Shown here: piece by piece, positions 12,295-39,752 of the stretch
Layout: each line of letters begins with the position of its first letter
Position numbering within the stretch: position 1 is the first letter of the stretch
Source of the DNA: Actinomycetales bacterium
GTDB lineage: Bacteria > Actinomycetota > Actinomycetes > Actinomycetales > CAWJMD01
Assembly: GCA_047974565.1 (NCBI GenBank)
Contig: JBKECN010000015.1
Span: 68,142-132,141 of the forward strand
DNA: 64,000 nucleotides
Direction: 5' to 3'
The notes under the pieces: model-generated
Databases searched by the model: none
The model's input: only the letters and a program-made list of their open reading frames with translations
Told to the model about the DNA's origin: nothing
Made by a program: the position numbers and the translations under genes

Positions 12295-12732
12295 TCACTC
12301 CAGCGTCGGAGCCGTTGACCCCACATCGCCCCGGTGCGGAGCGGACGGCGCAGCGGCCAGCACCAGCCCACCGAGCATCGCCGCGTTCTTGAGGAACTGG
12401 GTGCGCTGCTGCTTTCGGGCTGCCTCGTCCTGCACCGTCCAGAACGGGTGACCGACGAGGGTCGTCGGCACCAAGGAACCCACCAAGGCCAGTGCGGCCA
12501 AGCGGGGCGCCACGCCGAGGGCCAGTAGGCTGCCGGCCACCGTCTGGGCCCCGGCATTGATCCGCACCAACAGTTCGTCGTTCGGGATGAACGGTGCCTT
12601 CGCGCGCACTTTCGCCGTGGCCGGCGCGAGCAAGGAGGCTGCCGGGGCCGGGTTCTGCAGATTCTGATATCCCAGCACGGCGTAGGGGACCCCGCTGAGC
12701 AGCCGGGCCGTCTTGGTCGCTGCGCTTGTCAT
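12295..12732 (-). CDS. DoxX-family membrane protein
   Basis: 145-aa, four hydrophobic segments, family-like GAQTVAGSLLALGVAPRLAAL and FLKNAAMLGGLVL. Confidence 0.75.
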   Translation of the reverse strand: MTSAATKTARLLSGVPYAVLGYQNLQNPAPAASLLAPATAKVRAKAPFIPNDELLVRINAGAQTVAGSLLALGVAPRLAALALVGSLVPTTLVGHPFWTVQDEAARKQQRTQFLKNAAMLGGLVLAAAPSAPHRGDVGSTAPTLE

Positions 12733-14176: not shown

Positions 14177-15603
14177 GACACTTGCTCCAGGATTGACCGG
14201 GTGGACTCGGGGTGGGGGGTGAGCGAGACGACCTCTCGGGCGGCCAGGCGCTGGGCGGGTGATGAGTCAGGCCCAGAGTCGCCAAGTGGCCACGACCCGT
14301 CCAGGGCCCGGCCCAGCAGATCGGTGCCGATCGCCGGCTCGGCCAGTCGCGCGTGGCTGAGCCGCCCTTCGCTGGTGACGATCTCCACGCGCAGGTTCCG
14401 GGACAGCACGTCCGCAGCCTGCCGGTAGGCCGCGCTCGCGGTGCCGGCGCGCACGGCAAGCAGTCCGAGCCGGTCCCAGTTGTCCGCGAGCGGACGGACC
14501 GTCGCGCCCTCCTCGGTGGTCAACTGCCAGGTGATCACCCCTGGCTCGGCCCCCAGATCGCCGGAGCCGCAGATCCTGGCGACTCGGCCGGGCTCGCCCA
14601 CCAGGAACCGGGTACAGGCGCCGCCGCGTGGCCGCGGGGACTCGGCCAGGGCCGGTGCCAGCCCGAAGGGCCAGGCCAGGGACAGGCGGATGAGGTCCAC
14701 GTCGTAGGCGGCCCGCACCAGTGACGGGATGGCGTCTCCGGCGGGACGGTTGTGTCCCTCCACCACGCGCACGCCCGACGGCCCGACCTTGACCTCGGTG
14801 TGCGAGACGCCGTCCCGCAGGCCCATCGCGGTGAGGAAGTCCTGCACGGTTGCAGTCACCTCGGCGCGCTGGGCGGCGGCGATCCGGCCCGGGACCAGAT
14901 GCCCGAGCTCGGTGAAACTGCCAGGGGAGCAGAGCTTCTCGGTGACGGAGACGACGACATGCCGCCCAGCGAAGGAGAAGGCCTCGACGCTGTACTCCGG
15001 GCCCGGCAGGTACTCCTCGGCGACGAAGTCGCCGAGCACGAAGAGCGTGGAGACGCGGTCCGTGCGGCTTCCCCGGAGCCGGCGAATGTGCTGCCAGGCG
15101 TCCTCCAGATCATCCGGACTGTGGACGATCCGCACTCCCAGGCTGGCGGTTCCGTCGCTCGGCTTGACGATGAACGGGTACCCCAAGGCGTCTGGGCAGG
15201 CCCACAGGTCGGCCCGAGTGGTCACCGTGCGCGAGCGAACCGCCAGCCGCGGATCGTCGGCCAGGTGAGCCCGCATCGCCTGCTTGTCCCGGAACCGATG
15301 GGCCACCTGATAGCCGGTGCCACCGGTGCGGTACAGATCGTTCAGCCGTCCGGCATTCTCCAGGCCCGGCTCGGTGAGCGACAGGACGGCGTCGAAGCCG
15401 ACCTGACGCCACCAGTTCGCCGCGGCAGGTGCCACGTGCTGCCAGTCGACGAAATCGAGCACCTGGACCTGATGCGCGGCGTCACGTTGAACGTCGGTGA
15501 TCTTGCTCGGGTGTTGTAGAAGTAGTACGCGGATGCCCAGATCCGCTGCTGTGACGAGGGTTTCGTCAGTGCCGCCGACCAGGAGCAGGGTGGGATCAGA
15601 CAT
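14173..15603 (-). CDS. ATP-grasp carboxylate-amine (amino-acid) ligase-like enzyme
   Basis: 476 aa. FRDKQAMRAHL...GYPFIVKPSDGTASLGVRIV...EEYLPGPEYSVE...HTEVKV. Start overlaps the upstream stop by 8 nt. Confidence 0.8.
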   Translation of the reverse strand: MSDPTLLLVGGTDETLVTAADLGIRVLLLQHPSKITDVQRDAAHQVQVLDFVDWQHVAPAAANWWRQVGFDAVLSLTEPGLENAGRLNDLYRTGGTGYQVAHRFRDKQAMRAHLADDPRLAVRSRTVTTRADLWACPDALGYPFIVKPSDGTASLGVRIVHSPDDLEDAWQHIRRLRGSRTDRVSTLFVLGDFVAEEYLPGPEYSVEAFSFAGRHVVVSVTEKLCSPGSFTELGHLVPGRIAAAQRAEVTATVQDFLTAMGLRDGVSHTEVKVGPSGVRVVEGHNRPAGDAIPSLVRAAYDVDLIRLSLAWPFGLAPALAESPRPRGGACTRFLVGEPGRVARICGSGDLGAEPGVITWQLTTEEGATVRPLADNWDRLGLLAVRAGTASAAYRQAADVLSRNLRVEIVTSEGRLSHARLAEPAIGTDLLGRALDGSWPLGDSGPDSSPAQRLAAREVVSLTPHPESTRSILEQVS

Positions 15604-16576
15604 CGGCCTGCTCCTGGGTCCAGAGCGAGAGGTAGCGCTCCCCAGTGTCCGGCAGGATCGTTACCACGGTCTTGCCGATCAGGTGCGCTCGCGCCGCGAC
15701 GGTTCGTGCCGCCGCCATCGCGGCGCCCGAGGACACCCCCACCACCAGTGCGTGCTCCCGAGCGAGCGTGCGGGCGGCCTCTCTGGCCCGCGCGTCGGTC
15801 ACCGTGAGCACCTCGTCGATGAGATCGACGTCCGTGGTCGGGGCGACGAAGCCACCGTTGAGCCCAGCGATGGCATGGGTGCCGCCGACCCCGGTGCTCA
15901 ACACGGGAGACCCGTAGGGCTCCACGGCGACCACGTGCAGGTCGGGATTCTGTCGGCGCAGGTACCGGGCAGTGCCGCTGAGGGTGCCACCGGTGCCCAC
16001 TCCGGCGACCAGGACGTCCACCACGCCCTGGCAGTCCCGCCAGATCTCCGGGCCGGTGGTCTCCTCGTGGGCGCGGGGGTTGTCGGGGTTGAGGTGCTGG
16101 GCACAGAACCAGGAGTCCGGGGTGACCTCGCACAGGTGCAGGGCCGCGTCGATGGCTCCTTGCAAGCGCTGCGCCGCCGGCGTCAGCACCACCCGGGCCC
16201 CCAGCAGCCGGAGCATCGAGACTCGTTCGGGGGTAGCGGTATCCGGCATCACGACGATACAGCGGTAGCCGCGCACGGATGCCAGCGCAGCCAGTGCGAT
16301 GCCGGTGTTCCCGGAGGTGGCCTCCACCACCGTGCTTTTGCCCGGGACGAGCCGACCGGCGCGCTCGGCGCCGTCCAGCATGGCCACCGCCGCCCGGTCT
16401 TTGACGCTGGACAGAGGGTTGGCGGCCTCGACCTTGGCCAGCAGGCGGGCCCCAGGGTGCGAGGTGGCAGTGAGATCGATGAGCGGAGTGTTTCCGATCA
16501 GATCCTCCACGGACAGTGCGATCCGGGGGCGGGCTCGCAGGTCAGCGGGGGTGGCGGCAGCGATGTCGATGGTCAT
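15596..16576 (-). CDS. PLP-dependent cysteine-synthase-fold beta-replacement enzyme (CysK/SbnA-like)
   Basis: Track ORF 15596..16696; start ATG 16576 is preceded by GGAGA. Motifs IGNTPLIDL, PLSSVKDRAA (PLP Lys), TSGNTGIALA, GVGTGGTLSG. Confidence 0.85.
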   Translation of the reverse strand: MTIDIAAATPADLRARPRIALSVEDLIGNTPLIDLTATSHPGARLLAKVEAANPLSSVKDRAAVAMLDGAERAGRLVPGKSTVVEATSGNTGIALAALASVRGYRCIVVMPDTATPERVSMLRLLGARVVLTPAAQRLQGAIDAALHLCEVTPDSWFCAQHLNPDNPRAHEETTGPEIWRDCQGVVDVLVAGVGTGGTLSGTARYLRRQNPDLHVVAVEPYGSPVLSTGVGGTHAIAGLNGGFVAPTTDVDLIDEVLTVTDARAREAARTLAREHALVVGVSSGAAMAAARTVAARAHLIGKTVVTILPDTGERYLSLWTQEQADV

Positions 16577-16607: not shown

Positions 16608-17291
16608 TCAGGCGGCCACGGGCAGTTCGTCGCCGGAGCGACCGATGATGGTGTCGATCGCGTCGGCGAACGACCGGCCGGGTCCGAGCCCGGCATGGGC
16701 GGTGGGGCCGGCGGCGGGCGGCAGTGAAAGTACGCACCGGGCGCCGAGTCCCCGGGCCAGCGCCACGTCGCCGGCGGACGAACCCAGGACGACGACCTCC
16801 CGGGGTGTCAGGCCCAGCGCCCGCACTGCTCGCCCGCCCAGGTCGTCGACAGCCCGGCCGGGGCTAGTTCCGCGGCGTGCTACGACCACGTCCACTAGCT
16901 GGCTCAGGCGCGCGCGCTCCACGAGAATCTGCGCGACAGAGGCAAGCTCGTCGGCCACCACCGCGATCCGGATGCCTCGGGAGGCGAGCCGGGCCAGGCC
17001 GGCTCGTACCTGCATCGGGCAGGTCGGCGCGGCGCCGTCGACGGTCTGGCGCACCGCGTGTCGGCGATGCTCGGCCAGCACCAGGCGGGCCACGGTGGTC
17101 TGCACGTCGCTGCGCGCGTCGCCGGCAGCGATCTGCGGGACGGCTCCGGACAGGGCGGCGTGCAGGGGGACGGGCCGATGGTGGCCGGGCCCGGAGCCGA
17201 GCCGGACCTGCTGGCCGTGCGCGGTCTTCGCGGCGGTGCCGATCAGGGTCCGGTGTAGGTCAATCACAACGCCACGTACAGGGGTGCTCAT
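16608..17291 (-). CDS. HAD-superfamily hydrolase/phosphatase (IndB/MinC-like position)
   Basis: 3' 227 codons of track ORF 16608..17828. ATG 17291 is preceded by GAAGGAGG and lies 11 nt after the NRPS stop. N-terminal VVIDLHRTL in the HAD motif I position and a C-terminal VVVLGSSAGDV segment; the HAD call rests on these plus position and length, and the motif I Asp pair is not canonical. Confidence 0.7.
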   Translation of the reverse strand: MSTPVRGVVIDLHRTLIGTAAKTAHGQQVRLGSGPGHHRPVPLHAALSGAVPQIAAGDARSDVQTTVARLVLAEHRRHAVRQTVDGAAPTCPMQVRAGLARLASRGIRIAVVADELASVAQILVERARLSQLVDVVVARRGTSPGRAVDDLGGRAVRALGLTPREVVVLGSSAGDVALARGLGARCVLSLPPAAGPTAHAGLGPGRSFADAIDTIIGRSGDELPVAA

Positions 17292-17302
17292 GATGTCCTC
17301 CT

Positions 17303-17533
17303 TCACATCCGGTATTCGGGTTCCTTGCACAACAGATCGCGCTTGCCGGCGATCTCGGGGAGATAGACCTTCGCCCGCCAGTCGCTCTCGGGAACTTCCT
17401 CCAGGGCGATCGACACCGCACCGGGGGCGCAGCCAAGAGCGCTGCTGACCAGGCGGGTCATGTCGTGGGCCAATCGGGCGCGAAGTTCCGGGTCGAGTTG
17501 GACGGGGAAGTGTTTGACGCTGACGTGTGGCAT
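17303..17533 (-). other. PptA-type tautomerase (4-OT superfamily) unit, in frame with the NRPS but with its own SD and ATG-Pro start
   Basis: MPHVSVKHFPVQLDPELRARLAHDMTRLV...SIALEEVPESDWRAKVY...EPEYRM (76 aa). From memory this resembles E. coli PptA (MPHIDIKCFPRELDEQQK...). GAGGAG lies 5 nt upstream of ATG 17533. Confidence 0.75.
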
Positions 17534-20500
17534 GACGTCTCCTCGGGGGTGGGGGGTGCTGAGCAGCTGAGGCTGGGCGGGCTCGGATTCGTGGTGGGTG
17601 AACCCGCGATGGTGGGGTCTGGAAGGGGCCGGACGCCGGCCCGGGCTGGTGGACGGGACGGGCCTGGTAGATGGGCCCGGCCTGGTAGATGGGACCGGGC
17701 GGGTGGATGGGTGATGATCGTGGCCGCTTTCCAGGGCGGCGCCCACGGCCGTGATCAATCTGGCGACCTCCGGTGGGCGCAGCACCGAGTAGTGGTCCGA
17801 GGGCATCTGGACGGTGGTCGGGTCGCACACCGAGAAGCGTTGGCTGCCTTCGAGGAAGGAGTAGTCGTCGCCCTGAGCCTTGACCACCGTGATGGGGGCC
17901 CGCACGGTACGCCCGGTGAGTTCGTGGAAGGTATAGGTCGACTCGTAGGTGTGCTCCACCAGCCTGGTGACCCGAAGGATCAGCTCCTGGTCCAGTCCCG
18001 GCAGATGACGATCGAGGAAGTCGGCGAACGACTCGGCGTCGTGCACGGCGGCCCGGCAGTCGCGCAGGACCTGGCTGGCTGGCAGCTCGGCCAGGAAGAC
18101 CGACAGCAGGATCGTCAGGAAGTCCGGCGATCGGTAGTCGGCCTTGCCCGAAGGAGCACCGGCCCAGGGGCCTTGGGTACTGGGGGCTTTCGGCGCGCCG
18201 AGCAACGGTGAGCCGGGCGCGACCAGCACCAGTGCGCTCACCTGCGCTCCGGCCTGCTCAAGTTGGTACGCCGCCTCGAACGCCACCCGGGCGCCGAAGG
18301 AGTAGCCGAGGAGTGAGTACGGACCATCTGGTTGCCGCCGCCGGATCAGCTCGACGTCGGCGCTGGCCATCGAGGTGATGCCGTCGAGCACGGGTTCGCC
18401 GGGATTGATGCCGCTGGCCTGGATGCCGAGAACATCCCGGTCACTGGCCAGACCGTGAGCCAGCGGCGTCAGGTTCATCGGGAATCCGCCGAGCCCGGGC
18501 CAGCAGAACAGTGCATCGCCCGGCCGCGCACCCTTGCCCGGCGGCAACCCCTTTCCGGGGCTGGCAAGTCGTACCAGGCGGTTGGGCTTCTCGTCTGCCG
18601 GCTCGGAGTTGCCGGCCCGTCCGATTGGCACCGAGGCGGTGCCGGCTGGGTCGGTTGAGCCGCGCCGGTCGCCGTGAGCTGCTTCCTCGGGGTGGGTCGG
18701 TCCGCCTGTGGACGCCGCGGCACCGTCCAGCAGGCCTGCCAGCGCGCGTGGCGTGCTGTGCTCGAAGATCGCCTGCAGCGGCAATCTGGCCCCCAGGCGA
18801 TCGTTGAGCCGGTGGATGAGCTGGACGCTGGTGAGCGAGTCGCCACCGATGGCGAAGAAGTCGTCGACCACCGAGGCGCTGTGTGGCACCAGTTCTTGCC
18901 AGATGGACAACACCTGAGCCTCGCTGGGCGTTGCCGGGGGTACCGACTCCCGGTTCCGGGCAGTGTCGTCGGCGATTCGGCGCAAGGCCACCAGATCCGT
19001 CTTTCCTGTTGCGGTGGTGGGGATCTCGTCCAGGACGTGGATCTGCCGGGGCACCATGTAGCGGGGTAGCGTCCGGGCCAGTTCGTCGCGCAGGATCTCC
19101 GCCGGGCCTCGGCTGTGCACCCGGTCCTGGGCCATGTCACGGGCGGCGATCTGAGCCTGGGTGACGGGGCCCGCCAGCGCGAAGTAGGTCAACTCGTCGT
19201 GGCCGGTGAGTTCGCGGTACCGCGCGGCCGATGGAAGCGGCCTACCGGTCAGCGAGCTGTAGCCCGCCGACATCAGGCCGATTCCACCTCCGGCGGCCTG
19301 CAGGTGGTGCATCGCCCGCCCGAGTTGCACGAGGCCACGCCAGCCGTGTCCGGTCGAGGTGGTGAGCAGCACGCCGAAGGCCGCGTCGTCGTAGCTGGCC
19401 TGGTTGATGGCGATGACATCGCGGCGCCGGATCGTATCCGGTCCGAGGTGCTGCCACCGGGCACCGGCCCTGGTAAGCCCGGGTGCCAGGCCCGGCACCC
19501 GACGGGCGTGACCCTGCAGCAGGATGCCGACCTCGGCGGGCAGTGTGCGCGCCGGCCCCGGATGCACCCGCACCGCGGCCAAGGCCACCGCCTCGTCTCC
19601 GAGCCCCAGCAGATTCGCTGCCAATGCAGGGATCTCGGTGGTGCTCAGGCCGAGACCGGCCAGTGCGCGGTCCAGCGCACCCAACAGGTGTCCGGCCTCC
19701 AGATGCAGTACCTCATCGACGTTGGTCACATAGACGCTGGTGATCGCCGTCCGGATGCCGACCAGGTGCACCTCCAGCAGCGGTTCACCGGCCGGGCAGT
19801 CTGCCGGCGCAGCGAGATCGCCGAACAACGGCGTGGACGCCTCGACGTCGACCCGGTCCAGCCGGTGGGCGTACTGGTCGAAGTAGTAGAGACCATCGGG
19901 CAGCCCGGCGATTCCGGCGCACCGCAGGTAGAGCTGAGTGGCCACCAGGGCACCGGGGGAGGCGTAGGCGAACTTCGGCAGCAGCCGGTCCGGGCTCTCG
20001 AACGGTCCGAGCCAGCGCAGCAGCCGCCCCACCCCGTCCAGATCCGGCAGTCGTCCGGCCTCCGGGACGGGATCGTCAGTGACGCAAGGATTCTCAGGTG
20101 GTTGGCCGGCACGGGCCAGCCACTCGCGGATGGTGTCGGCGTCCACGCCGCTGCCTTCGAAGATCCGGTAGGTCTTGCGGGCGAAGACCTCTCGCACCTG
20201 CTCGAGGCTGGGTTCGGCGCCCGGCAATGGCAGGCCCGGGCCGGTCAGGTCGCGTCGGCGTCCGAGCTGGGCCAACTGAGCGCGGACCTGCACCCGCGAA
20301 CCCTTGGAGCTGTGGTGGCCGCCACCCTCACCCTGATCCATCAACGCGGCCTCCTCGGAGTCCAGCCCGACGAAGGCGACCAGGCCGGTGCATCCGGTGC
20401 TGGGATCCTCATGCGGCACCACCACTGCCTGACGGATCCAGCGGTGTTCCTCGACGGCGTTGCGGACCTCGTCCAGTTCGATCCGGTGGCCGTTGATCTT

Positions 20501-21811
20501 CACCTGGGTGTCGTCCCGGCCTACGAAGCACAACCCGGCCCGCTCATCCCAGCGCACCCGGTCACCGGTGCGGTAGGCGCGCACCTGCCGTCCTTGTGCG
20601 TTCGCCCGGGTGAGGAAGCGCGCCGCAGTCTGCTGCGGGTCTGCGACATATCCGCGGGCCACCTGCGGGCCAGTGATCACCAGTTCACCCACCTCGCCGG
20701 GCGCCACCGGGGCGAGATCGTCGTCCAGGACGGTGAGTTCGTGCCCGTCCACGGGATTGCCGATCGGCACGGTCGGGGTGTCGAGGGCGGCCGCGGAGTC
20801 GGCGGTGAGCACCTGCGCGGTGGCGTTGATGGTGGTCTCGGTCGGGCCGTAGAGGTTCACCAGGCGGGCCGTCGGCAGAGCGGCCAGGAGCCGCCTGGCC
20901 AGCGCGGTGGCCAGCACCTCCCCACCGCTGTACAGGTCGCTCAGGCTGGTGCAGTCGGCCAGTTCCGGGTGCGCGGCCAGCGCCGTCCACAGCGTCGGAA
21001 CGCACTGCACGGCGGTGATCTGCTGCTCCCGCACCAGCCGGAGCAGACGCTCCGGGTCCCGATTCGTGCCCGACTCGGCGACCACCACGGTGGCGCCGCA
21101 GGCACTGGCCAACAGTTCCCACTGGGCGGCGTCGAAGCCGATCGGGGTCTTGAACAGCAGCCGGGCCCGGGGGCGCAGCAGACCGCTGCCTCGCAGCCAC
21201 GCCAACTGATGCCCCAGACCGCCGTGCTCGACCATCACCCCTTTGGGGCGGCCGGTGCTGCCGGAGGTGTACACCACGTATGCCAGGGCATCCGGCGGGG
21301 GAGTGTTCGGGCCAGGCTGCCGGGGGGTATCCGTGCCGGACCGGGCGGCCAGGTCACGCACGGTGCTGAGCACCGCACGTGGTGCCACCTCCTCGGCTCG
21401 TCCGGCCAGGGCGGCGTCGACGACGAGCACCCGGACGCTCGCATCGCCGGCCATCAACTCCACTCGAGCGGTCGGCAACGACACCGGCAGCGGCACATAG
21501 CCTGCCCCCGCGAGCAGGACGCCCCAGGCGGCGACCACGAGGTCCACTCCAGGCTCCATGAACAGCCCGACCCGGTCCTGCGGGCGCACCCCGAGGGTGC
21601 GCAAGCCGGCGGCAACCCGGGTGGCGCCGGCCCACAGGTCGGCGACGGTGAGGATGCAGCCGGTGGCCGGCTCACACACGGCTGGTCGGCCGGGATCGGT
21701 GAGCAGCTCCTGGCGCAGCAGCTGCACGGGTGTGGGGCCGCTACCGTGGGGCGGGTGTGTGGGCGCGCTGGGGTGGGTGGCTGCGGGGGCCACCATCAGG
21801 TCGACGGTCAT
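17303..21811 (-). CDS. Single-module NRPS, A(Ox)-T-TE with in-frame C-terminal tautomerase (indigoidine-synthetase BpsA/IndC/MinA-type architecture)
   Basis: Track ORF 17303..21850; ATG 21811 lies 10 nt after the DsbA-like stop. A3 YTSGSTGRPKG, A5 NLYGPTE, A7 YRTGD, A8 GRDDTQVKINGHRIELDEV. About 460 aa are inserted before A9 LPRYMVP and A10 ATGKTD. T motif is FFAIGGDSL and TE motif is GYSFG. The last 76 aa are PptA-like. Confidence 0.9.
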   Translation of the reverse strand: MTVDLMVAPAATHPSAPTHPPHGSGPTPVQLLRQELLTDPGRPAVCEPATGCILTVADLWAGATRVAAGLRTLGVRPQDRVGLFMEPGVDLVVAAWGVLLAGAGYVPLPVSLPTARVELMAGDASVRVLVVDAALAGRAEEVAPRAVLSTVRDLAARSGTDTPRQPGPNTPPPDALAYVVYTSGSTGRPKGVMVEHGGLGHQLAWLRGSGLLRPRARLLFKTPIGFDAAQWELLASACGATVVVAESGTNRDPERLLRLVREQQITAVQCVPTLWTALAAHPELADCTSLSDLYSGGEVLATALARRLLAALPTARLVNLYGPTETTINATAQVLTADSAAALDTPTVPIGNPVDGHELTVLDDDLAPVAPGEVGELVITGPQVARGYVADPQQTAARFLTRANAQGRQVRAYRTGDRVRWDERAGLCFVGRDDTQVKINGHRIELDEVRNAVEEHRWIRQAVVVPHEDPSTGCTGLVAFVGLDSEEAALMDQGEGGGHHSSKGSRVQVRAQLAQLGRRRDLTGPGLPLPGAEPSLEQVREVFARKTYRIFEGSGVDADTIREWLARAGQPPENPCVTDDPVPEAGRLPDLDGVGRLLRWLGPFESPDRLLPKFAYASPGALVATQLYLRCAGIAGLPDGLYYFDQYAHRLDRVDVEASTPLFGDLAAPADCPAGEPLLEVHLVGIRTAITSVYVTNVDEVLHLEAGHLLGALDRALAGLGLSTTEIPALAANLLGLGDEAVALAAVRVHPGPARTLPAEVGILLQGHARRVPGLAPGLTRAGARWQHLGPDTIRRRDVIAINQASYDDAAFGVLLTTSTGHGWRGLVQLGRAMHHLQAAGGGIGLMSAGYSSLTGRPLPSAARYRELTGHDELTYFALAGPVTQAQIAARDMAQDRVHSRGPAEILRDELARTLPRYMVPRQIHVLDEIPTTATGKTDLVALRRIADDTARNRESVPPATPSEAQVLSIWQELVPHSASVVDDFFAIGGDSLTSVQLIHRLNDRLGARLPLQAIFEHSTPRALAGLLDGAAASTGGPTHPEEAAHGDRRGSTDPAGTASVPIGRAGNSEPADEKPNRLVRLASPGKGLPPGKGARPGDALFCWPGLGGFPMNLTPLAHGLASDRDVLGIQASGINPGEPVLDGITSMASADVELIRRRQPDGPYSLLGYSFGARVAFEAAYQLEQAGAQVSALVLVAPGSPLLGAPKAPSTQGPWAGAPSGKADYRSPDFLTILLSVFLAELPASQVLRDCRAAVHDAESFADFLDRHLPGLDQELILRVTRLVEHTYESTYTFHELTGRTVRAPITVVKAQGDDYSFLEGSQRFSVCDPTTVQMPSDHYSVLRPPEVARLITAVGAALESGHDHHPSTRPVPSTRPGPSTRPVPSTSPGRRPAPSRPHHRGFTHHESEPAQPQLLSTPHPRGDVMPHVSVKHFPVQLDPELRARLAHDMTRLVSSALGCAPGAVSIALEEVPESDWRAKVYLPEIAGKRDLLCKEPEYRM
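17726..18928 (-). other. Thiolation (PCP) and thioesterase domains of the NRPS
   Basis: GGDSLTSVQLIHRL (Ser attachment site). TE with LFCWPGLGG, GYSFGARVA and a C-terminal DH pair. Boundaries are approximate. Confidence 0.75.
19136..20233 (-). other. Ox (nitroreductase/SagB-like FMN oxidase) domain embedded between A8 and A9 of the NRPS
   Basis: Roughly residues 540-905 of the track ORF interrupt the adenylation domain (RKTYRIFEG...LPKFAYASPGALVATQLYL...AINQASYDDAAFGVLL...GLMSAGYSS). Boundaries are approximate. Confidence 0.7.
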
Positions 21812-21821: not shown

Positions 21822-22436
21822 TCAGCTGGTCTCGAGGTCGCCGCGGCCACGCTTGTACTCGACGAACTGCCGGTGCCTGGATAGGCGCACGACCGCGTCG
21901 AAGATGTCCACCGCGTCCTGACCGCGGGGGATGCCGGTGAGCACCGGCCCGAAGAAGGCCTCGCCCTCGACGTGGATGATCGGTGTGCCCACGTCCTCGC
22001 CCACCGGCTCCAGTGCCAACCTGGTCCTGGCCCGCAGTACCGCGTCCCAGGAGGGATCGTCGGCGGCGGCGTCCAAGCCTGCGTCCAGGCCGGCGACCCG
22101 CAGGGCGTCGGTAACCATCGCCCGGGTGTCCCGCCGGCCCTCGACGTGCCGCATCCGGCCGTAGGCGTCGTAGAAGGAATCGAACGAGCCGGTACGTGAC
22201 TGCAGGGCGGCGGCGACCCGGGCCGGGCCCCACGCCTGGTCGTTGAACTCGCGGTACCAGTCGTCCAACTCGCGTCCTTCGTTGATCACCGAGAGGCTGA
22301 CCAACTCCATCCGCACGGTCGCGGCTCCCTTGGCCATCACCTCCAGCAACCATCTCGAGGTGATCCAGGCGAACGGGCAGGACGGATCCACGAAGAGGGT
22401 CACGTCCGGGGTCGGGGTGTTATTCGGTTCTTTCAT
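21822..22436 (-). CDS. DsbA-like thioredoxin-fold protein
   Basis: 204 aa. VTLFVDPSCPFAW (CxxW-type thioredoxin motif position) and C-terminal GTPIIHVEGEAFFGPVL. First gene of the minus operon. Confidence 0.7.
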   Translation of the reverse strand: MKEPNNTPTPDVTLFVDPSCPFAWITSRWLLEVMAKGAATVRMELVSLSVINEGRELDDWYREFNDQAWGPARVAAALQSRTGSFDSFYDAYGRMRHVEGRRDTRAMVTDALRVAGLDAGLDAAADDPSWDAVLRARTRLALEPVGEDVGTPIIHVEGEAFFGPVLTGIPRGQDAVDIFDAVVRLSRHRQFVEYKRGRGDLETS

Positions 22437-22655: not shown

Positions 22656-22760
22656 CAGGTGGATTGACCCTGCCGAGGGTCGGGCCTAGCGTTGTGGATA
22701 TCGAATTCACCTGAGGAGCGGCACCCGGATGAAGCGCATTCGGGATTCGGCCTCACTCAT

Positions 22761-22777
22761 TTCATAAAGAATATGAA
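22761..22777. promoter_or_regulatory. AT-rich inverted repeat in the divergent spacer (candidate operator or promoter element)
   Basis: TTCATA-aagaa-TATGAA, the most AT-rich spot of the spacer, about 70 nt upstream of GTG 22848. Confidence 0.3.
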
Positions 22778-22847
22778 TACCGCGGCCACAGCGATGACTT
22801 TTCAGCCTTGGCCCCTACCGATCCGATGTCGAGCCCTTGGAGGCGTC

Positions 22848-23975
22848 GTGCTCTTGTCCACCCGGTCCCAGCGAGATCACCCGGGCCGCTGCCTGCCCGG
22901 TGGGCCGTCGGGGAAGGTGTCCAGCAACGAAAGCCCGTACCCGCCCCTGGCCGCGGTGTCCGAGGCGATGACCGCCTGGAACCCGGCGCTCAACAGGTAC
23001 CCGGAGCGACACCCAGAGCGCCTGACTCTCGCCCTGGCGGCCCACCACCGGGTCAGCCCCCAGGAGATCACCGTGGGCACCGGCTCGGTGGCCGCCCTGC
23101 AGTACCTCGTCCAGGCGAGTGTGCCGGCCGGGGCCGAACTCGTCTACGGCTGGCGCAGCTATGAGACCTACCCGCGGCTGGCCCGGATCAACGCCGCCCA
23201 CGCGGTCCAGGTGCCATTGCGCCAGGAGTACCTGGATCTGGGCGCGATGGCCCGCGCGGTGACCTCACGCACGGCCGCGATCATCGTGTGCAACCCCAAC
23301 AACCCGTCCGGCACCCTGCACTCCACGGCCAGCCTGGACGACTTCCTGCGACAGGTGCCCCGGAACGTCCTGGTCATCCTCGACGAGGCGTATTGGGAGT
23401 TCACCGGAGTCCCCGAAGACGCCAGTGGGACGCGGCTGTACCGGAACCATCCCAACGTCGCCGTCGTGCGCACCTTCTCCAAGGCCTTCGGCCTGGCCGG
23501 CCTGCGGGTCGGCTATGTGATCGCCCGACCCGAACTCACCGCCTTGGCCCGGTTGTGCGCGGTCCCCTTCGGCGTCAGCGCCGGTGCCGAGGACGCCGCG
23601 CTCCGTGCACTCGAGCACCGCAGCGCGCTGCGGGAGCGGGTGGCGGGCATCGTCTCCGAACGCGAGCGGATGTGGAAGCACCTGACCGGCAACGGTTTCC
23701 ACGTCCCGCCGAGCAGATCGAACTTCCTGTGGCTGACCGGCCTCGCCGATCAACCCGGCCTCGTCAGTGCCTGCGCCGATGCCGGAATCACCGTGCGCGA
23801 CTTCCCGGGCGAAGGAGTCCGGGTCACCGTCGCCACCCCCGGTGTCAACGACCTCGTGTGCGCCATCGCCAGCCGGTTCGCTCCGGCTGACCCCGACCAC
23901 CGATCAGCGGCCGGCACCACCTGCAGAACCCGACCACGCGCCACGGCGCCCCTGCGGAGAGGACACCCGACATGA
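22848..23975 (+). CDS. Class-II (HisC-like) aromatic/histidinol-phosphate aminotransferase
   Basis: Track ORF 22692..23975. GC3 rises only after about 22845. GTG 22848 has GGAGG 4 nt upstream. Motifs SSNESPYPP, NPNNPSG, RTFSKAFGLAGLRVGY (PLP Lys). Confidence 0.85.
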   Translation: MLLSTRSQRDHPGRCLPGGPSGKVSSNESPYPPLAAVSEAMTAWNPALNRYPERHPERLTLALAAHHRVSPQEITVGTGSVAALQYLVQASVPAGAELVYGWRSYETYPRLARINAAHAVQVPLRQEYLDLGAMARAVTSRTAAIIVCNPNNPSGTLHSTASLDDFLRQVPRNVLVILDEAYWEFTGVPEDASGTRLYRNHPNVAVVRTFSKAFGLAGLRVGYVIARPELTALARLCAVPFGVSAGAEDAALRALEHRSALRERVAGIVSERERMWKHLTGNGFHVPPSRSNFLWLTGLADQPGLVSACADAGITVRDFPGEGVRVTVATPGVNDLVCAIASRFAPADPDHRSAAGTTCRTRPRATAPLRRGHPT

Positions 23976-26584
23976 CACACCTGGCAATCCTGGAGTCCAA
24001 CACCTCCGGGTCCGGCTTCGACACGATTCGCGCGGCCAAGCGGCTCGGCTGCCGGGTCACCTTCTTCACCTCCGGGCTGGACCGGTACCACGCCGCCCCC
24101 GGCGGACGCGCCTGCCTGGACGAGTGCGTTGACGAGATCGTGCTCTGCCCCACCCACGACCGGGTTGCCCTGACCCAGGCAGTCCGGGACGCGCATCGCA
24201 CCGATCCGTTCGACGGCTTCTGCTCGGTCGCCGAGTACGAGGTGGTGGACGCGGCCGCGATCGCCGAAGAACTCGGGCTGGCCTCCCCCGGCTCGACCGC
24301 AGTGGCCACGGCCCGCAACAAGATCCGGATGCGCCGCGTCTGCTCGGCCGCCGGCGTACCCACACCCCGCTTCGCTGCCGTGGCAGGTGTCGACCAGGTG
24401 GCCGAGGCAGTGGCGCACACCGGTCTGCCGTGCGTGGTCAAGCCCGCCGACGAGACCGCCAGCGCGCAGGTACGCCGCTGTGACACCGTCGACCAGGTCC
24501 ACGAGCATGTCGCCCGGGTGCTGAGCCAACCCCGCAACATCCGGGGACAGCGCCGCCACCCGGAGGTCCTCATCGAGGAGTTCCTGCCCGGCTTCGAGGT
24601 GAGCGTCGAGGTGCTGGTCACCGCCGACGGCGCCCGGGTGCTGGGTGTCACCGACAAGTGGGTGAGCGGCCACGGCAGCTTCGTCGAGCTCGGCCACACC
24701 TTCCCCAGCCAACTGCCGCCGGACGAGACCGCAGCTTGCGCCGCAGTCGCTGTCGACGCCGTGCAGGCGATCGGCCTGCAACTGGGACTGCATCACGTCG
24801 AGGTCCGCCAAAGCCGTTCCGGCCCCTGCCTTGTCGAGGTCAACCCGCGTCCGGCGGGCGACCGGATCCACGACCTGGTGGATCTCGCCCTTGGTGGCTT
24901 CTGCCTGGAGTTCGTGGTGCGGCAGAGCCTGGGGGAACCGGTCGAGCTCGACACCCCCGTGGTGGCGCGGCGCGCAGCCGCCATCCGGTACCTGATCAGC
25001 GCACCGGGAACCGTGACCGGGGTGCACGGCCTGGAGACCGCCGCGACCCTGCCCGGTGTGCAGGCCGCCGTTGCCGGGGTTCGCCCGGGCGACCAGGTGC
25101 AGCCGCTGAGCCGCAACGAGGACCGCACCGGCTACGTGCTGGCCACCGGAGCCGACGCCTTCACCGCCTCCCGGTGGGCCGAAGCCGCCGCGCTGCAGAT
25201 CGACATCCGCACCCAGGATGCCTCCGCAGAGCCGTCCGAACCACGTCAGGCGCATCACCAGTGCGGAGGTCCCGGCACCGCCTCAGTGCCCGCCACCAGG
25301 CAGTCGACCGGCCAGGCACCGGACTCGGCAGGCGTGCTCGTCATGGTGATGCCCTACCGGGCGTTCGTCGACAAGGCCACCGCCGCCGGTTATCGGGTGC
25401 ACGCCCTCTGGGACACCGCCGTCGCCGAACGGCTCTATCACCAGGACGCCGGGCGGTACCTCGACGAACTCGGCCAGGTCGCCGAGAGCCTGCAGTTCAC
25501 CGACTTCGACGACGAGGACGCCTACCAGGGCGCCCTGGACGAACTGGTGCTTCGCCACCGCCCAGACCGCCTCCTGCACTTCGGGTCCGAGGAGTCGATG
25601 CCGGTCGCCTACCGGGTGGCCCACCGTCATGGCCTGGAGTCCAACCCTCCCGAGGCGATCGCCTGCCTGAACGACAAGGCGGTCATGCGGCGGGCGCTCG
25701 CCGAGGCCGGGGTATCCCCGGTGCGAGCGGTGCTCGTCGACTCACCAGCGGACCTGGCCCACGTGCTCGCCGACACGACGTTGCCGGTCGTGGTCAAGCC
25801 GACCGGACTCTCCGGAAGCCGAGCAGTGCAGCGCATCGACGACCGGAGTCAGCTCCCCGGCTACCTCGACTCGCTGGCGCACTATGACTACACCGGGCCG
25901 TTGCTGGTGGAGGAGTACCTCGACGGGCCCGAGTTCAGCGTGGAGACGGTGAGCATCAACGGCCTGGCACATGTGGTCGGTGTGACCCGAAAGTCGGTCG
26001 GGCCGGCACCACTGTTCGTCGAGACCGGCCACGTGCACCCGGCCCCCGAGTCCGAGGCGGCGTTGGTTGCGGCCGAAGCGGTTCGGCTGCTCGAGGTGGC
26101 CGGCTACCAGTGGGGTCCCGCCCATACCGAGGTCCGGCTCACCCGCCACGGTCCGCGGATCATCGAGTCGCAGGCCCGCCTCGGCGGCGATCGGATCCCC
26201 CGGCTGGTGCACCTGGCCACCGGCATCGACCTCGAACGTGAGGTGACCTGCACCCTGTCCGGCAGCTGCGTCGGCCTTGTCCCGCAGCACCGGCGGGTCG
26301 CCGCCATCGACTATCTGGAACTACCGGTCGGAGTGGTTCTGGCGATCGACGGCCTCGCCGCGGTCCGCGAACTGGCCTACGTGGACGAACTGAAGGTGCC
26401 CTGGTCCGTCGGCGACCGGATCACCCCAGTGCTGGACACCTGGTCCCGGCACGGTCACGTGATCGTCAGCGCCGACGACCACGACACGCTGCAGGTGCGC
26501 CGCGATCAGGTCCGCGAGGCGATCCTCACCTGCTTCACCATCGACACCCAGGGCCAGGACGACGACTGGCGGGCCGCCTCATGA
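23972..26584 (+). CDS. Fused double ATP-grasp ligase (two complete ATP-grasp modules in one 870-aa protein)
   Basis: Module 1: ARNKIRMRRVCSAAGVPTPRF...LPCVVKPADETAS...EEFLPGFEVSVE...HHVEVR. Module 2: LNDKAVMRRALAEAGVSPV...LPVVVKPTGLSGS...EEYLDGPEFSVE...AHTEVRL. ATGA overlaps at both ends. Confidence 0.85.
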   Translation: MTHLAILESNTSGSGFDTIRAAKRLGCRVTFFTSGLDRYHAAPGGRACLDECVDEIVLCPTHDRVALTQAVRDAHRTDPFDGFCSVAEYEVVDAAAIAEELGLASPGSTAVATARNKIRMRRVCSAAGVPTPRFAAVAGVDQVAEAVAHTGLPCVVKPADETASAQVRRCDTVDQVHEHVARVLSQPRNIRGQRRHPEVLIEEFLPGFEVSVEVLVTADGARVLGVTDKWVSGHGSFVELGHTFPSQLPPDETAACAAVAVDAVQAIGLQLGLHHVEVRQSRSGPCLVEVNPRPAGDRIHDLVDLALGGFCLEFVVRQSLGEPVELDTPVVARRAAAIRYLISAPGTVTGVHGLETAATLPGVQAAVAGVRPGDQVQPLSRNEDRTGYVLATGADAFTASRWAEAAALQIDIRTQDASAEPSEPRQAHHQCGGPGTASVPATRQSTGQAPDSAGVLVMVMPYRAFVDKATAAGYRVHALWDTAVAERLYHQDAGRYLDELGQVAESLQFTDFDDEDAYQGALDELVLRHRPDRLLHFGSEESMPVAYRVAHRHGLESNPPEAIACLNDKAVMRRALAEAGVSPVRAVLVDSPADLAHVLADTTLPVVVKPTGLSGSRAVQRIDDRSQLPGYLDSLAHYDYTGPLLVEEYLDGPEFSVETVSINGLAHVVGVTRKSVGPAPLFVETGHVHPAPESEAALVAAEAVRLLEVAGYQWGPAHTEVRLTRHGPRIIESQARLGGDRIPRLVHLATGIDLEREVTCTLSGSCVGLVPQHRRVAAIDYLELPVGVVLAIDGLAAVRELAYVDELKVPWSVGDRITPVLDTWSRHGHVIVSADDHDTLQVRRDQVREAILTCFTIDTQGQDDDWRAAS

Positions 26585-31531: not shown

Positions 31532-31657
31532 ACAGGCACCGCCAACGGCCAGCTCCCAGCAAAAAATGTCCATGCAACCGAAAGACTCGACCAGGCCGAG
31601 ACCTGACCTCCGTCATACCCAAGAAGCAAATCCGTCAGACCCACGAAAGGCATTGCC

Positions 31658-38695: not shown

Positions 38696-38760
38696 CGGGC
38701 TCAGGCTGGATCTAACTGGCTGAGGCTGGATCTGACGGACTGAGGCTGGAGCTGAGGGCT
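38681..38760. repeat. 4 tandem copies of a 20-bp unit (TCAGGCTGGATCTGACGGGC) starting inside the last codons of the response regulator
   Basis: Units at 38681, 38701, 38721 and 38741 with 1-4 substitutions each. Confidence 0.9.
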
Positions 38761-38859
38761 CCTACCCGTCCGCAGCCAACCGGGGTGGTCGGCGGCTGAG
38801 CCACGCCGAGCGGACGAACGGCTGGTCGACGGTGAGGCCGCGCCGCGCTGTTCAACGGT

Positions 38860-39706: not shown

Positions 39707-39752
39707 GAGGCTCAGAAGTGACGGGTGAGGCTCAGAAGTGACGGGTGAGGCG
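39707..39752. repeat. 2.3 tandem copies of a 20-bp unit (TGAGGCTCAGAAGTGACGGG) spanning the stop codon of the DUF1992 gene
   Basis: Identical units at 39707-39726 and 39727-39746, partial third copy to 39752. The gene's stop (39732-39734) sits in copy 2. Confidence 0.9.

Follow-up and report, generated by a model that had tools for sequence, protein, structure and literature searches.

The window (the whole 64 kb stretch analyzed, from an Actinomycetales bacterium) contained 48 called genes, among them a minus-strand operon with a BpsA/IndC-type NRPS gene and a divergent operon with putative p-aminophenylalanine (PAPA) genes, an ATP-grasp ligase gene and a diazotase homologue (Table 1).

Table 1. 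Features of the NRPS locus, with positions in the window; NRPS domain limits are approximate.
Feature	Position	Strand	Remarks
DoxX-family membrane protein	12295-12732	minus	possibly operon end; not conserved in related loci
ATP-grasp ligase, 422 aa	12908-14176	minus	Pfam; 4-nt overlap with preceding gene (14173-15603)
ATP-grasp L-amino-acid ligase, 476 aa	14173-15603	minus	ATP-grasp_4 + LAL_C2; overlaps PALP stop by 8 nt
CysK-like PLP β-replacement enzyme, 326 aa	15596-16576	minus	PALP 247 bits
Orphan degenerate HAD-fold protein, 227 aa	16608-17291	minus	11 nt downstream of NRPS
BpsA/IndC-type single-module NRPS, A(Ox)-T-TE-Tau	17303-21811	minus	1502 aa from ATG; Pfam, PDB alignments, motifs
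NRPS Tau unit	17306-17533	minus	
NRPS P/S/T-rich repeat linker	17534-17776	minus	
NRPS TE domain	17777-18511	minus	
NRPS T domain	18728-18916	minus	
NRPS A9-A10	18992-19099	minus	
NRPS Ox insert	19100-20371	minus	
NRPS A core	20372-21733	minus	
Rv2466c-like (mycothiol-dependent reductase/DsbA-fold) protein	21822-22436	minus	PF22234 195 bits; first operon gene, 10 nt upstream of NRPS
HisC-like class I/II aminotransferase	22692-23975	plus	putative last step to p-aminophenylalanine
Double ATP-grasp L-amino-acid ligase, 870 aa, two LAL units	23972-26584	plus	profile matches
MFS transporter fused to type II chorismate mutase (PapB-like aminodeoxychorismate mutase)	26581-28482	plus	MFS_1 17-248, CM_2 520-598
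Fused GATase + chorismate-binding aminodeoxychorismate synthase (ADCS; PapA/PabAB type)	28479-30605	plus	TIGR00553 pabB 357.7 bits, cut-off 328.4
Prephenate-dehydrogenase-like enzyme (PDH; PapC-like)	30602-31531	plus	PDH_N + PDH_C
Type I ATP-dependent diazotase/N-nitrosylase homologue, 560 aa	31658-33340	plus	NCBIfam AvaA6, PDB matches
Fused E1-like + YcaO cyclodehydratase, 833 aa	33511-36012	plus	adjacent, same strand; cluster membership uncertain
HisKA_3 histidine kinase + LuxR-type response regulator	36123-38695	plus	possible cluster regulators

The NRPS matched AMP-binding (residues 38-388), AMP-binding_C (904-937), PP-binding (966-1028), Thioesterase (1101-1210) and Tautomerase (1428-1478; 23.9 bits, or 29.9 bits if scanned alone) in Pfam. 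Motif A8 (GRDDTQVKINGHRIELDEV) ended at residue 449 and motif A9 (LPRYMVP) began at residue 915, a spacing of 465 residues, while alignments to NRPS structures in the PDB stopped at about residue 480 and restarted at 905. An earlier note on this DNA had described an A domain split between A8 and A9 by an oxidase insert of about 460 aa and followed by T, TE (GYSFG) and tautomerase units, and the measured spacing, the Pfam matches and the motif positions (GGDSL 989-993, GYSFG 1169-1173) agree with it. The Ox signature motifs KFAYASPG, GLYYF and AITSVY were all present.

The pocket motif FDAAQWE was located at residues 226-232, as previously read, and alignment to verified GrsA/1AMU numbering completed the specificity code as DAWQYGLINK. 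The family consensus is DAWQFGLIN (109 of 120 homologues), from which the window NRPS differs only by F299Y, a variant found in 8 homologues; therefore, the code reads as a glutamine code and not as a non-Gln one. The best 120 matches were all A(Ox)-T-TE proteins of 39-48% identity, in line with the earlier assignment to the BpsA/IndC/MinA family, and no database protein was closer than 50% identity. Judging from code and domains, the NRPS is apparently a functional, glutamine-activating enzyme of BpsA/IndC type.

Of 286 columns with at least 95% conservation in the family, 267 were kept. Seven of the 19 deviations lie inside the Ox insert, including Y614F, P646Q, Y780T and E895Q; Y827L is another deviation and falls with Y780T in the second Ox half, so that a modified Ox outcome is possible. 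The enzyme might then form a non-oxidized or differently oxidized product, e.g., 3-aminopiperidine-2,6-dione (glutarimide), or activate a Gln analogue, to which the Tyr instead of Phe at code position 299 would also point. We consider such altered chemistry improbable, because Y299 also occurs in seven other homologues, all three Ox signature motifs as well as Y694 (the Tyr of the AIxxVY motif) are intact, and Y780 is replaced too in the CysK-linked relatives P0004 and P0005. In addition, a retained Tau makes sense only with an oxidized, tautomerizable ring.

The genes from the Rv2466c-like protein through NRPS, HAD-fold protein and PALP to the two ligases are spaced by 10, 11 and 31 nt and then by -8 and -4 nt, and by this arrangement the NRPS is co-transcribed with the CysK-like enzyme and both ATP-grasp ligases, which the earlier note had correctly placed downstream. 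The CysK-like enzyme scored 350.8 bits against TIGR01136 cysKM (cut-off 344) and just under the cut-off of TIGR01139 cysK. In an unbootstrapped NJ tree with outgroups from E. coli only, it clustered with PALPs linked to NRPSs and not with E. coli CysK/CysM, and it shares with them several clade-specific alterations close to the active site, namely QF to QH, M96A, GIGA to GLNG and the loss of a 6-residue loop. Orthologues of the 476-aa ligase (51-54% identity) and of the 422-aa ligase (53-57%) were found in the Streptomyces loci L020, L029, L032, L045, L047 and L052. The cluster holds four to five ATP-grasp ligase domains, one gene carrying two.

The diazotase homologue scored 343.9 bits against NCBIfam AvaA6, below the model cut-off of 975, versus at most 160 bits for acyl-CoA ligases. 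Its PDB matches were 9xb8 (2.6e-194), 8ztz (3e-83) and Tri17 (6e-76), with true acyl-CoA synthetases at 1e-27. Residues H236, F279 and K527 align to His224, Phe267 and Lys533 of CmaA6 and are invariant in the diazotase alignment A1; the nitrite-site residues of CmaA6 are retained. PDB entries 9xb8/9xbs are about 60% identical to the homologue, and the work behind them might already define its chemistry.

A total of 81 loci were collected through the diazotase and their neighbors counted within ±10 kb. ADCS (orthologues of 57-63% identity) was found at 69 loci, PDH at 68, ATP-grasp at 65, CM at 64 (CM_2 being a separate gene of about 100 aa in relatives) and the aminotransferase at 37-38. A BpsA-like NRPS was present in only 22, so the core cluster does not depend on it. 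Several genes co-varied with the NRPS: PALP (14/22 loci with NRPS versus 1/59 without), stand-alone Tau (15/22 versus 0/59), Hexapep (CysE-like; 9/22 versus 0/59), DsbA-like (Rv2466c-like; 22/22 versus 20/59) and the 422-aa ligase family, which was restricted to NRPS-bearing loci (6/22 versus 0/59). Nitrite-supply genes in related loci were CreE-like (24), CreD-like (19), Mo nitrate reductase (11) and NirB-like (11), and ANS genes were rare within ±10 kb in NRPS-bearing loci (3/22). The window itself contained no CysE-like, nitrite-supply or PPTase gene, and no homologue of the YcaO fusion was detected in the 81 loci. The PAPA-linked NRPSs were scattered over several places of an unbootstrapped NJ tree, which suggests repeated recruitment of the NRPS into PAPA-type clusters.

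In Kitasatospora sp. NPDC051914 (L010), Tau-NRPS is divergent from CM-ADCS-PDH-diazotase-DsbA-2xATPgrasp-MFS-ATPgrasp-PALP-MFS-Hexapep-2xATPgrasp, and Streptomyces fuscigenes (L009) has a similar arrangement; double ATP-grasp genes are present in both. Both are cultured strains in which the gene set recurs. No published description of this cluster family was found; the cluster is conserved in actinobacteria and apparently undescribed.

The earlier statement that no IndA-like gene lies in the window held: none of the 48 called genes matched PF04227 in Pfam scans, and tblastn with PsuG of E. coli as query found nothing better than E=1.9 in the six-frame translation of the 64 kb. IndA, UPRTase and DUF4243/questin-oxidase genes were absent from the sequence flanking the NRPS (17 kb on one side, 42 kb on the other) and from the ±10 kb neighborhoods of the 22 related loci, save for a UPRTase (PF14681) adjoining the NRPS of L009. 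Therefore, the locus is no standard ind/min set, and in this respect the proposed different genomic context was right; what had been missed was the large conserved cluster of PAPA, diazotase, DsbA-like, CysK-like and ligase genes.

The HAD-fold gene starts with an ATG at 17291, 11 nt past the NRPS stop codon as noted before, and its HAD assignment is marginal (HAD_2 24.7 bits, cut-off 23.8, C-terminal half only). Asp+2 is missing from motif I (DLHRT), Thr from motif II (VVADE) and the first Asp from motif IV (GSSAGD), leaving three of the four catalytic motifs degenerate. A search of 5.8 billion proteins returned only the protein itself, and an exhaustive search of 1.84 billion representatives gave 30 weak matches (best E=8e-6) and no orthologue. 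Identity to a genuine min-cluster HAD was 25% over 130 aa, and none of the 22 related NRPS-bearing loci contained a HAD gene. An IndB/MinC-type phosphatase, as which the earlier note had taken it, was rejected on these grounds; it is a lineage-specific accessory protein, probably not a phosphatase. A minimycin/oxazinomycin-type C-nucleoside pathway, with an IndA/MinB glycosynthase outside the window and a MinC-like HAD phosphatase, would fit the order of A-Ox-T-TE-Tau and HAD-fold gene, which resembles minA...minC (PMC6908994; canonical locus L092). The orphan, degenerate HAD and the missing partner genes here and in the related loci make it very improbable.

MinA or IndC alone is enough for indigoidine production in E. 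coli (PMC6908994), and in A-domain code and domain set the window NRPS matches characterized indigoidine synthetases. The NRPS could then simply make blue pigment, e.g., as an antioxidant, and its PAPA, diazotase and ligase neighborhood would be functionally meaningless. This seems unlikely to us, since the gene is translationally coupled in an operon with PALP and ligases and at least 22 genomes, whose NRPSs belong to different branches, repeat the association, which co-varies with PALP, Hexapep and Tau. In a cluster with PAPA genes, diazotase, CysK-like enzyme and ligases, the NRPS probably supplies a pyridine unit, not blue pigment or a C-nucleoside; the conserved context redefines its purpose.

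On balance we favor, with some reserve, that the NRPS-made heterocycle is a building block for a new N-N-bonded peptide formed via the CysK-like enzyme, ligases and diazotase. We infer the enzyme products, the CysK-like nucleophile, the step order and the final structure as follows. The NRPS would load L-Gln, the FMN Ox insert would cyclize and dehydrogenate it, and 3-aminopyridine-2,6-dione/3-amino-2,6-dihydroxypyridine would be released, its tautomer set by the Tau unit. This heterocycle would be neither the end product, as in indigoidine, nor C-ribosylated, as in minimycin. Mimosine and other β-heteroaryl-alanines are made by CysK-type enzymes; likewise, the CysK-like enzyme may use the heterocycle as nucleophile in a β-replacement on O-acetyl- or O-phospho-serine, giving a β-heteroaryl-alanine, an α-amino acid in contrast to the free heterocycle. 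PapA/B/C and the aminotransferase of the divergent operon would make p-aminophenylalanine, to which ATP-grasp L-amino-acid ligases could couple the β-heteroaryl-alanine. The diazotase homologue, with nitrite and ATP, would diazotize the aryl amine to yield an N-N-containing peptide, perhaps with an azo/hydrazone link to the electron-rich pyridine ring or in a reduced form via the Rv2466c-like protein. Alternatively, the CysK-like enzyme may do no more than provide cysteine or some other amino acid.

In dye chemistry, 2,6-dihydroxypyridines are well-established partners for azo coupling. The free heterocycle might accordingly serve only as the electron-rich carbon nucleophile that attacks a diazonium group formed on p-aminophenylalanine or on its peptide, giving an arylazo-pyridone or hydrazone, with an unrelated CysK-like enzyme making cysteine/thiol or diaminopropionate-type residues for the ligases. 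Aryl diazo compounds from biosynthesis couple non-enzymatically to active-methylene carbons (PMC11727004), close linkage of diazotase and PAPA genes holds for about 70 of the 81 loci with the NRPS added in 22, and PALP was not seen within the flank in 8 of the 22 NRPS-bearing loci. The co-variation of PALP and Hexapep with the NRPS speaks against this. Furthermore, an NRPS-EamA-CysE-CysK-cupin-LLM arrangement lacking the rest of the cluster occurs on metagenome contigs (L001-L005) and on the Agrobacterium K84 plasmid pAtK84c; this NRPS-CysK-CysE trio without PAPA or diazotase genes argues for a direct NRPS-CysK link. We hold coupling alone to be a possible but doubtful account; it is compatible with the building-block route, as both steps could occur.

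Type I diazotases/N-nitrosylases (CreM, AvaA6, CmaA6, Aha11, Tri17) share the ANL fold and His/Phe/Lys nitrite site with the window homologue, which resembles CmaA6 and Tri17 much more than it does acyl-CoA ligases and whose relatives likewise adjoin ANS or nitrate-reductase genes. However, the homologues form their own subfamily (50-61% identity among members), for which no published substrate was found, and are tied to PapABC and ATP-grasp ligases instead of polyene or aminohydroxybenzoate pathways. The PapA/PapB/PapC systems of chloramphenicol and pristinamycin I have the same fused ADC synthase, CM_2 mutase, prephenate-dehydrogenase-like enzyme and aminotransferase, but in the window the mutase forms one protein with an MFS transporter and p-aminophenylalanine apparently goes to ATP-grasp ligases and diazotase, not to an NRPS. 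Like the CysK-family β-substituted-alanine synthases (mimosine synthase, pyrazolylalanine synthase, DcsD, SbnA), the window PALP keeps the PLP Lys (SVKDR) and the TSGNTG loop, and its relatives are paired with a CysE-like acetyltransferase that the window lacks; the clade-specific active-site changes set it apart. The ligases share ATP-grasp_4 and LAL_C2 with BacD, DdaF and PGM1 (weak NCBIfam matches to BacD and DdaF), while four ligase units in one cluster, two of them in one gene, are a difference.

BpsA (Streptomyces lavendulae) and IndC (Dickeya, S. chromofuscus) are, like the window NRPS, single modules without a C domain, with a pseudodimeric FMN oxidase inserted into the A domain between A8 and A9, then T and TE, and the Gln code DAWQ(F/Y)GLINK. 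Identity to the S. lavendulae plasmid copy is about 40%. The window NRPS differs by its long P/S/T repeat linker before Tau and by CysK-like and ATP-grasp neighbors in place of IndA, UPRT, PRPP synthase and alkene reductase. The MinA/MinB/MinC/MinD cluster of S. hygroscopicus (PMC6908994) has the same A-Ox-T-TE-Tau and downstream HAD-fold gene, whereas the window lacks IndA/MinB, the DUF4243 oxidase and UPRTase, and its HAD is not orthologous. In both, a Gln-derived monomer would be diverted from dimerization by a partner enzyme, the capturing enzyme being a C-glycosynthase in minimycin and, as proposed here, a PLP β-replacement enzyme in the window.

The window has about 70% G+C; genes were called heuristically by a third-position G+C score and scanned against Pfam and NCBIfam. 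In the NRPS, the order of Pfam domains was AMP-binding, PP-binding and Thioesterase with no match to Condensation, corresponding to a single A-T-TE module. The T domain, TE with GYSFG motif and tautomerase unit (Tau) described after the A domain in the earlier note were recovered by Pfam, the first two also by motif positions. Its oxidase insert (Ox) of about 460 residues between motifs A8 and A9 was also confirmed, as 465 residues separate these motifs and contain the Ox signatures KFAYASPG, GLPDGLYYF and AITSVY, which line up with the BpsA/IndC family. Alignments of solved NRPS structures (PDB) to the protein end near residue 480 and restart at 905. A pseudodimeric Ox domain has been described for IndC, and the size of the insert is compatible with it (PMC8795117). 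A phmmer search of the insert against PDB gave only a marginal nitroreductase match and no direct match to BmdC. Ox was therefore judged by motif conservation rather than by mapping its catalytic Tyr onto BmdC. We tentatively take Y694 to be the equivalent of the IndC active-site Tyr, which was reportedly defined in a JACS paper of 2020.

The specificity code, of which the earlier note gave only the beginning, was completed by aligning a GrsA fragment (identical to residues 234-526 of 1AMU) with the window NRPS and 119 homologues. In 1AMU numbering the code is D235 A236 W239 Q278 Y299 G301 L322 I330 N331, and the A10 lysine is present as K937 of the window protein. DAWQFGLIN was present in 109 of the 120 homologues and DAWQYGLIN in eight, so that the window NRPS matches the family code DAWQFGLI(N/D)K apart from the conservative change F299Y. 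This is the code for glutamine in BpsA/IndC enzymes, an assignment that rests on established knowledge and on the biochemistry of MinA and BpsA (PMC6908994, PMC5282505). The window NRPS is an outlier of this family, with at most 50% identity to any database protein, and retains 267 of the 286 columns conserved at 95% or more. It belongs to the BpsA/IndC family by every criterion that can be tested on the sequence.

Positions of the features discussed, in window coordinates or in residues of the NRPS
Feature	Position	Strand	Remarks
Bacterial serpin	3312-4613	-	PF00079, 304 bits; beside a two-component system; unrelated to the cluster
ATP-grasp ligase	12908-14176	-	
ATP-grasp ligase	14173-15603	-	
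CysK-like PALP	15596-16576	-	
HAD gene	16608-17291	-	
NRPS	17303-21811	-	1502 aa
Start of Tau unit	17504-17545	-	MPHVSVKHFP; internal ATG 17533
TE-Tau linker	17534-17776	-	
Rv2466c-like DsbA-fold gene	21822-22436	-	
Divergent genes, aminotransferase to diazotase homologue	22692-33340	+	
MFS-type II chorismate mutase fusion	26581-28482	+	
Diazotase homologue	31658-33340	+	AMP-binding
Fused E1-like/YcaO cyclodehydratase	33511-36012		
Pterin-binding (DHPS-like), arginine-deiminase-fold and second PALP genes	42553-46268	-	second PALP 459 aa
NRPS AMP-binding	residues 38-388		Pfam
NRPS motif A8	residues 431-449		
NRPS AMP-binding_C	residues 904-937		Pfam
NRPS motif A9	residues 915-921		
NRPS motif A10	residues 931-939		PTTATGKTD
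NRPS PP-binding	residues 966-1028		Pfam
NRPS GGDSL	residues 989-993		phosphopantetheine Ser
NRPS Thioesterase	residues 1101-1210		Pfam
NRPS GYSFG	residues 1169-1173		TE nucleophile
NRPS C-terminal DH motif	residues 1339-1340		
NRPS Tautomerase	residues 1428-1478		Pfam; PF01361, 29.9 bits on 1427-1502

The tautomerase unit at the C-terminus of the NRPS is homologous to stand-alone genes of its relatives, which encode 74 aa and begin MPHV.IKHFP. In the window, the unit opens with Met-Pro at an internal ATG, and a Shine-Dalgarno-like GAGGAG ends about 5 nt upstream of it. Met or Val was kept immediately before the Pro in every fused homologue inspected. Catalysis in the tautomerase superfamily requires a free N-terminal Pro, and for this reason the unit may also be translated separately. 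The linker between TE and Tau is of low complexity, rich in P, S and T, with three PSTRP(V/G) repeats. Because the relatives have a short intergenic gap at this position, the fusion looks like read-through of a former spacer.

The NRPS operon comprises, in order, the Rv2466c-like DsbA-fold gene, NRPS, HAD, CysK-like PALP, two ATP-grasp ligases and perhaps DoxX. The first four genes lie 10, 11 and 31 nt apart, and the next two junctions overlap by 8 and 4 nt. The earlier note was correct in placing a HAD-like ORF 11 nt after the NRPS stop codon, and Pfam supported the CysK-like and two ATP-grasp genes further downstream. A reading of the HAD protein as an IndB/MinC-type partner was not supported. 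The HAD from a genuine min-type locus, L092 (FadR-MFS-NRPS-IndA-HAD-questin oxidase-UPRTase), was used as reference; the window HAD shared 25% identity with it over 130 aa and scored 24.7 bits against HAD_2, compared with 135.3 for the reference. A search of 5.8 billion proteins returned no homologue of the window HAD except itself, and HMMER, run exhaustively on 1.84 billion representatives, gave 30 matches at E ≤0.001, the best at 8e-6. An 18-kb Logan contig from the same organism was also recovered via this gene. No HAD gene was present in any of the related loci, which were read to 10 kb on either side of the diazotase gene.

In alignment with the weak relatives, motif I of the HAD reads DLHRT instead of DxDGT, motif II VVADE instead of the Thr/Asn-Lys motif, and motif IV GSSAGD instead of GDxxxD, while R replaces Lys in motif III. 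Only the nucleophile Asp, the basic residue of motif III and the last Asp survive among the catalytic positions, and the motif set of HAD-superfamily phosphatases (DxDx(T/V), S/T, K/R, (G/S)DxxxD) is not found complete. The low identity, orphan status and degenerate motifs I, II and IV rule out an IndB/MinC orthologue. The gene is probably expressed, considering the tightly spaced operon and its coding-like composition, and its product is unlikely to be a conventional phosphatase.

The divergent genes encode a HisC-like aminotransferase, an 870-aa double ATP-grasp ligase, the MFS-mutase fusion, a fused aminodeoxychorismate (ADC) synthase, a prephenate-dehydrogenase-like enzyme, the AMP-binding diazotase homologue, the fused E1-like/YcaO cyclodehydratase and a two-component regulatory system. 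A synthase, mutase, dehydrogenase and aminotransferase together make up the PapA/B/C-type p-aminophenylalanine (PAPA) route of the chloramphenicol and pristinamycin pathways. This set was complete in the window, with ADC synthase (pabB model, 357.7 bits; cut-off 328.4), ADC mutase (CM_2), aminodeoxyprephenate dehydrogenase and aminotransferase, and is predicted to form such a route.

Some genes in this region differ from those of the relatives. One ORF joins the MFS transporter to the mutase, which is a separate gene of about 100 aa in the relatives; such fusion of a transporter to a cytoplasmic mutase is unusual. The azoline-forming cyclodehydratase directly after the diazotase gene (SagD family, 224 bits) carries a leader-peptide-binding domain. 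The small ORFs listed for 38650-39780 included no convincing precursor peptide, and no homologue of the cyclodehydratase was found in the 81 related loci. Since it is unique to the window among the loci compared, its membership in the pathway is uncertain. The DHPS-like, arginine-deiminase-fold and second PALP genes are grouped together and may constitute a separate small pathway.

The best NCBIfam model for the AMP-binding protein was the AvaA6 diazotase (344 bits), and acyl-CoA ligases scored at most 160 bits. In PDB, it matched 9xb8/9xbs (2.6e-194), 8ztz (3e-83) and 8tf7/9bq0 (6e-76), the last identified as Tri17 (PMC11705231); true acyl-CoA synthetases matched at 1e-27 only. By these scores, acyl-CoA ligases are more distant from the encoded ANL-fold protein than CmaA6, AvaA6 and Tri17 are. 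His224, Phe267 and Lys533 are needed for the handling of nitrous acid in CmaA6 (PMC12207350). They correspond to H240, F283 and K549 of the 8ztz chain with a constant offset of +16. The window protein has H236, F279 and K527 at the aligned positions, and these three residues were invariant in 20 members of the subfamily. The structure 9xb8/9xbs, about 60% identical over the full length, is labelled only 'Fatty-acid-CoA ligase FadD', and we found no paper describing or citing it. A solved structure shows that the subfamily is already under study, and it may have been described outside the literature searched.

The double ATP-grasp protein alone, used as query, retrieved no related loci. A genome scan with the diazotase alignment gave at least 538 confirmed matches, of which 80 loci were kept. 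Companions were counted over 81 loci within 10 kb on either side of the diazotase gene by tblastn and all-against-all clustering of called genes. The matches were distributed in Streptomyces, Kitasatospora, Microbispora, Amycolatopsis, Lentzea, mycobacteria and MAGs, and the core of the cluster family consists of PapABC, diazotase and ATP-grasp ligases. Among the 81 loci, ADCS was present in 69, PDH in 68, ATP-grasp ligases in 65 and CM in 64. A CreE-like flavoprotein (24 loci), CreD-like lyase (19), DAHP synthase (23), and molybdopterin nitrate reductase and NirB-like protein (11 each) were identified by Pfam. The recurrence of nitrite-supply genes supports nitrite chemistry of the AMP-binding enzyme. 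Depending on the lineage, nitrite appears to come either from CreE/CreD-like genes or from an assimilatory-type nitrate reductase with NirB-like protein. No CreE/CreD-type, nitrate-reductase, DAHP-synthase or CysE-like (Hexapep) genes were found in the window.

A BpsA-like NRPS with Ox insert occurred in 22 of the 81 loci. The NRPS homologues P0101 and P0120 share their contigs with the diazotase homologues P0144 and P0189. In Kitasatospora sp. NPDC051914, Tau-NRPS is divergent from CM-ADCS-PDH-diazotase-DsbA-like-double ATP-grasp-MFS-ATP-grasp-PALP-MFS-Hexapep-double ATP-grasp, and the gene order in Streptomyces fuscigenes is similar. PALP was present in 14 of the 22 loci with the NRPS and in one of the 59 without it. 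The same comparison gave 15 against none for stand-alone tautomerase, nine against none for CysE-like Hexapep, six against none for orthologues of the second window ligase, and 22 against 20 for the DsbA-like gene.

The three closest NRPS homologues (43-45% identity) are encoded in a smaller cluster, NRPS-EamA-Hexapep-PALP-cupin-luciferase-like monooxygenase, with or without PPTase. An 'indigoidine synthase' on the Agrobacterium K84 plasmid pAtK84c is likewise followed by cysteine synthase, PPTase and cysE. Five metagenome contigs (L001-L005) and A. radiobacter K84 pAtK84c (L007, 341-359 kb) carry a stand-alone BpsA-like NRPS-EamA-CysE-CysK-cupin-luciferase-like monooxygenase-PPTase; the plasmid cluster also includes a nickel permease. 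The window PALP is 49-59% identical to the NRPS-linked PALPs, and in an unbootstrapped NJ tree with only E. coli outgroups it clustered with them and not with CysK or CysM of E. coli. The PLP lysine and TSGNTG loop are retained, and the whole clade has changed QF to QH, M96 to A and GIGA to GLNG and has lost a six-residue loop, at positions conserved in CysK and CysM. In the NRPS tree, also unbootstrapped NJ, the window protein joined the CysK-linked group, and other PAPA-linked NRPSs fell in at least three other places. The NRPS, Tau and CysK-like genes, with or without the CysE-like gene, thus behave as a portable sub-cluster that exists alone and joined to the PAPA/diazotase/ligase core, possibly joined more than once. 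No paper found in a literature search connected CysK/CysE, diazotases or p-aminophenylalanine to NRPSs of the indigoidine type, and the cluster family is apparently uncharacterised.

The window NRPS is probably a functional Gln-type BpsA homologue that supplies a building block in this cluster family, and not part of an ind/min set. Like MinA and BpsA, it would produce the monomer 3-aminopyridine-2,6-dione (PMC6908994). Not being an alpha-amino acid, this monomer would be no substrate for L-amino-acid ligases. A CysK-type enzyme would turn it into one by beta-replacement on activated serine, which would account for the co-occurrence of PALP and CysE with the NRPS; plant mimosine synthase carries out the same reaction with 3-hydroxy-4-pyridone. 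We regard this specific capture step as tentative, at somewhat less than an even chance. The stand-alone NRPS-CysE-CysK cluster may make pyridinedione-alanine by itself.

In the cluster, the four ATP-grasp ligase units would then build a short peptide with p-aminophenylalanine, whose aryl amine would be converted to a diazonium by the diazotase homologue. The aminopyridinedione itself has an o-aminophenol-like arrangement as in cremeomycin and might be diazotised instead, but this is less likely because the diazotase is accompanied by PAPA genes in about 70 of the 81 loci and by the NRPS in just 22. Coupling to electron-rich carbons has been shown for a biosynthetic aryl diazo compound (PMC11727004). 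For a diazotised p-aminophenylalanine, the 2,6-dihydroxypyridine ring would be the obvious partner, within or between molecules; alternatively, the Rv2466c-like protein might act as a thiol-dependent reductase of the diazonium. The complete route, with CysK-like alkylation by activated serine to a mimosine-like pyridinedione-alanine and ribosome-independent ATP-grasp ligation to enzymatically diazotised p-aminophenylalanine giving an azo- or hydrazone-bridged (arylazo-pyridone) peptide, would be a third fate of a BpsA-type heterocycle and is the more doubtful proposal.

Indigoidine synthetases have found wide use as reporters and in pigment production. To our knowledge, only two outcomes are known for them, dimerisation to indigoidine and C-ribosylation to minimycin. 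A third use, with the heterocycle as building block in a diazotase-containing peptide pathway, is suggested by the window locus and its relatives, which comprise 22 of the 81 sampled loci and, in metagenomes and on Rhizobiales plasmids, stand-alone NRPS-CysK-CysE clusters. Aryl diazotisation by enzymes is rare and was discovered only recently; a family of at least 538 genomes that links it with p-aminophenylalanine and ATP-grasp ligases would extend it considerably. If true, azo- or hydrazone-bridged peptides would be a new class of natural products in dozens of actinomycete genomes. The hypothesis is directly testable in cultured strains with the same gene set, candidates being Streptomyces sp. 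APSN-46.1 (L045), S. pratensis TRM74023 (L047), Kitasatospora cheerisanensis KCTC 2395 (L017) and Kitasatospora sp. NPDC051914 (L010), and might lead to novel N-N-bonded peptides, biocatalysts and a beta-heteroaryl-alanine synthase not known before.

The locus was finally compared with the ind/min gene set. In agreement with the earlier note, no IndA-like gene was detected: PF04227 (IndA/MinB) had no match among the 48 window genes, and tblastn of E. coli PsuG against the 64 kb gave a best E of 1.9, by which a nearby IndA was rejected for the window. The related loci, over the same 10-kb flanks, yielded no IndA/MinB-type gene either, whereas the canonical loci L008 and L092 carry one. DUF4243/questin oxidase (MinC-C) and UPRTase (MinD) also had no Pfam match in the window. 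In S. fuscigenes (L009/L063), the NRPS beside the PAPA/diazotase genes has EamA, UPRTase and PRAI as its neighbours, an arrangement also seen at the canonical BpsA locus of S. lavendulae. These canonical-type flanks indicate that ind-type and PAPA-type clusters abut, and an IndA may lie further along the contig, past the part read. Of the four features that define the ind/min gene set, the window locus lacks three and has the tautomerase, fused or adjacent. 'NRPS + HAD' is here no ind/min set, although it is easily mis-annotated as one.
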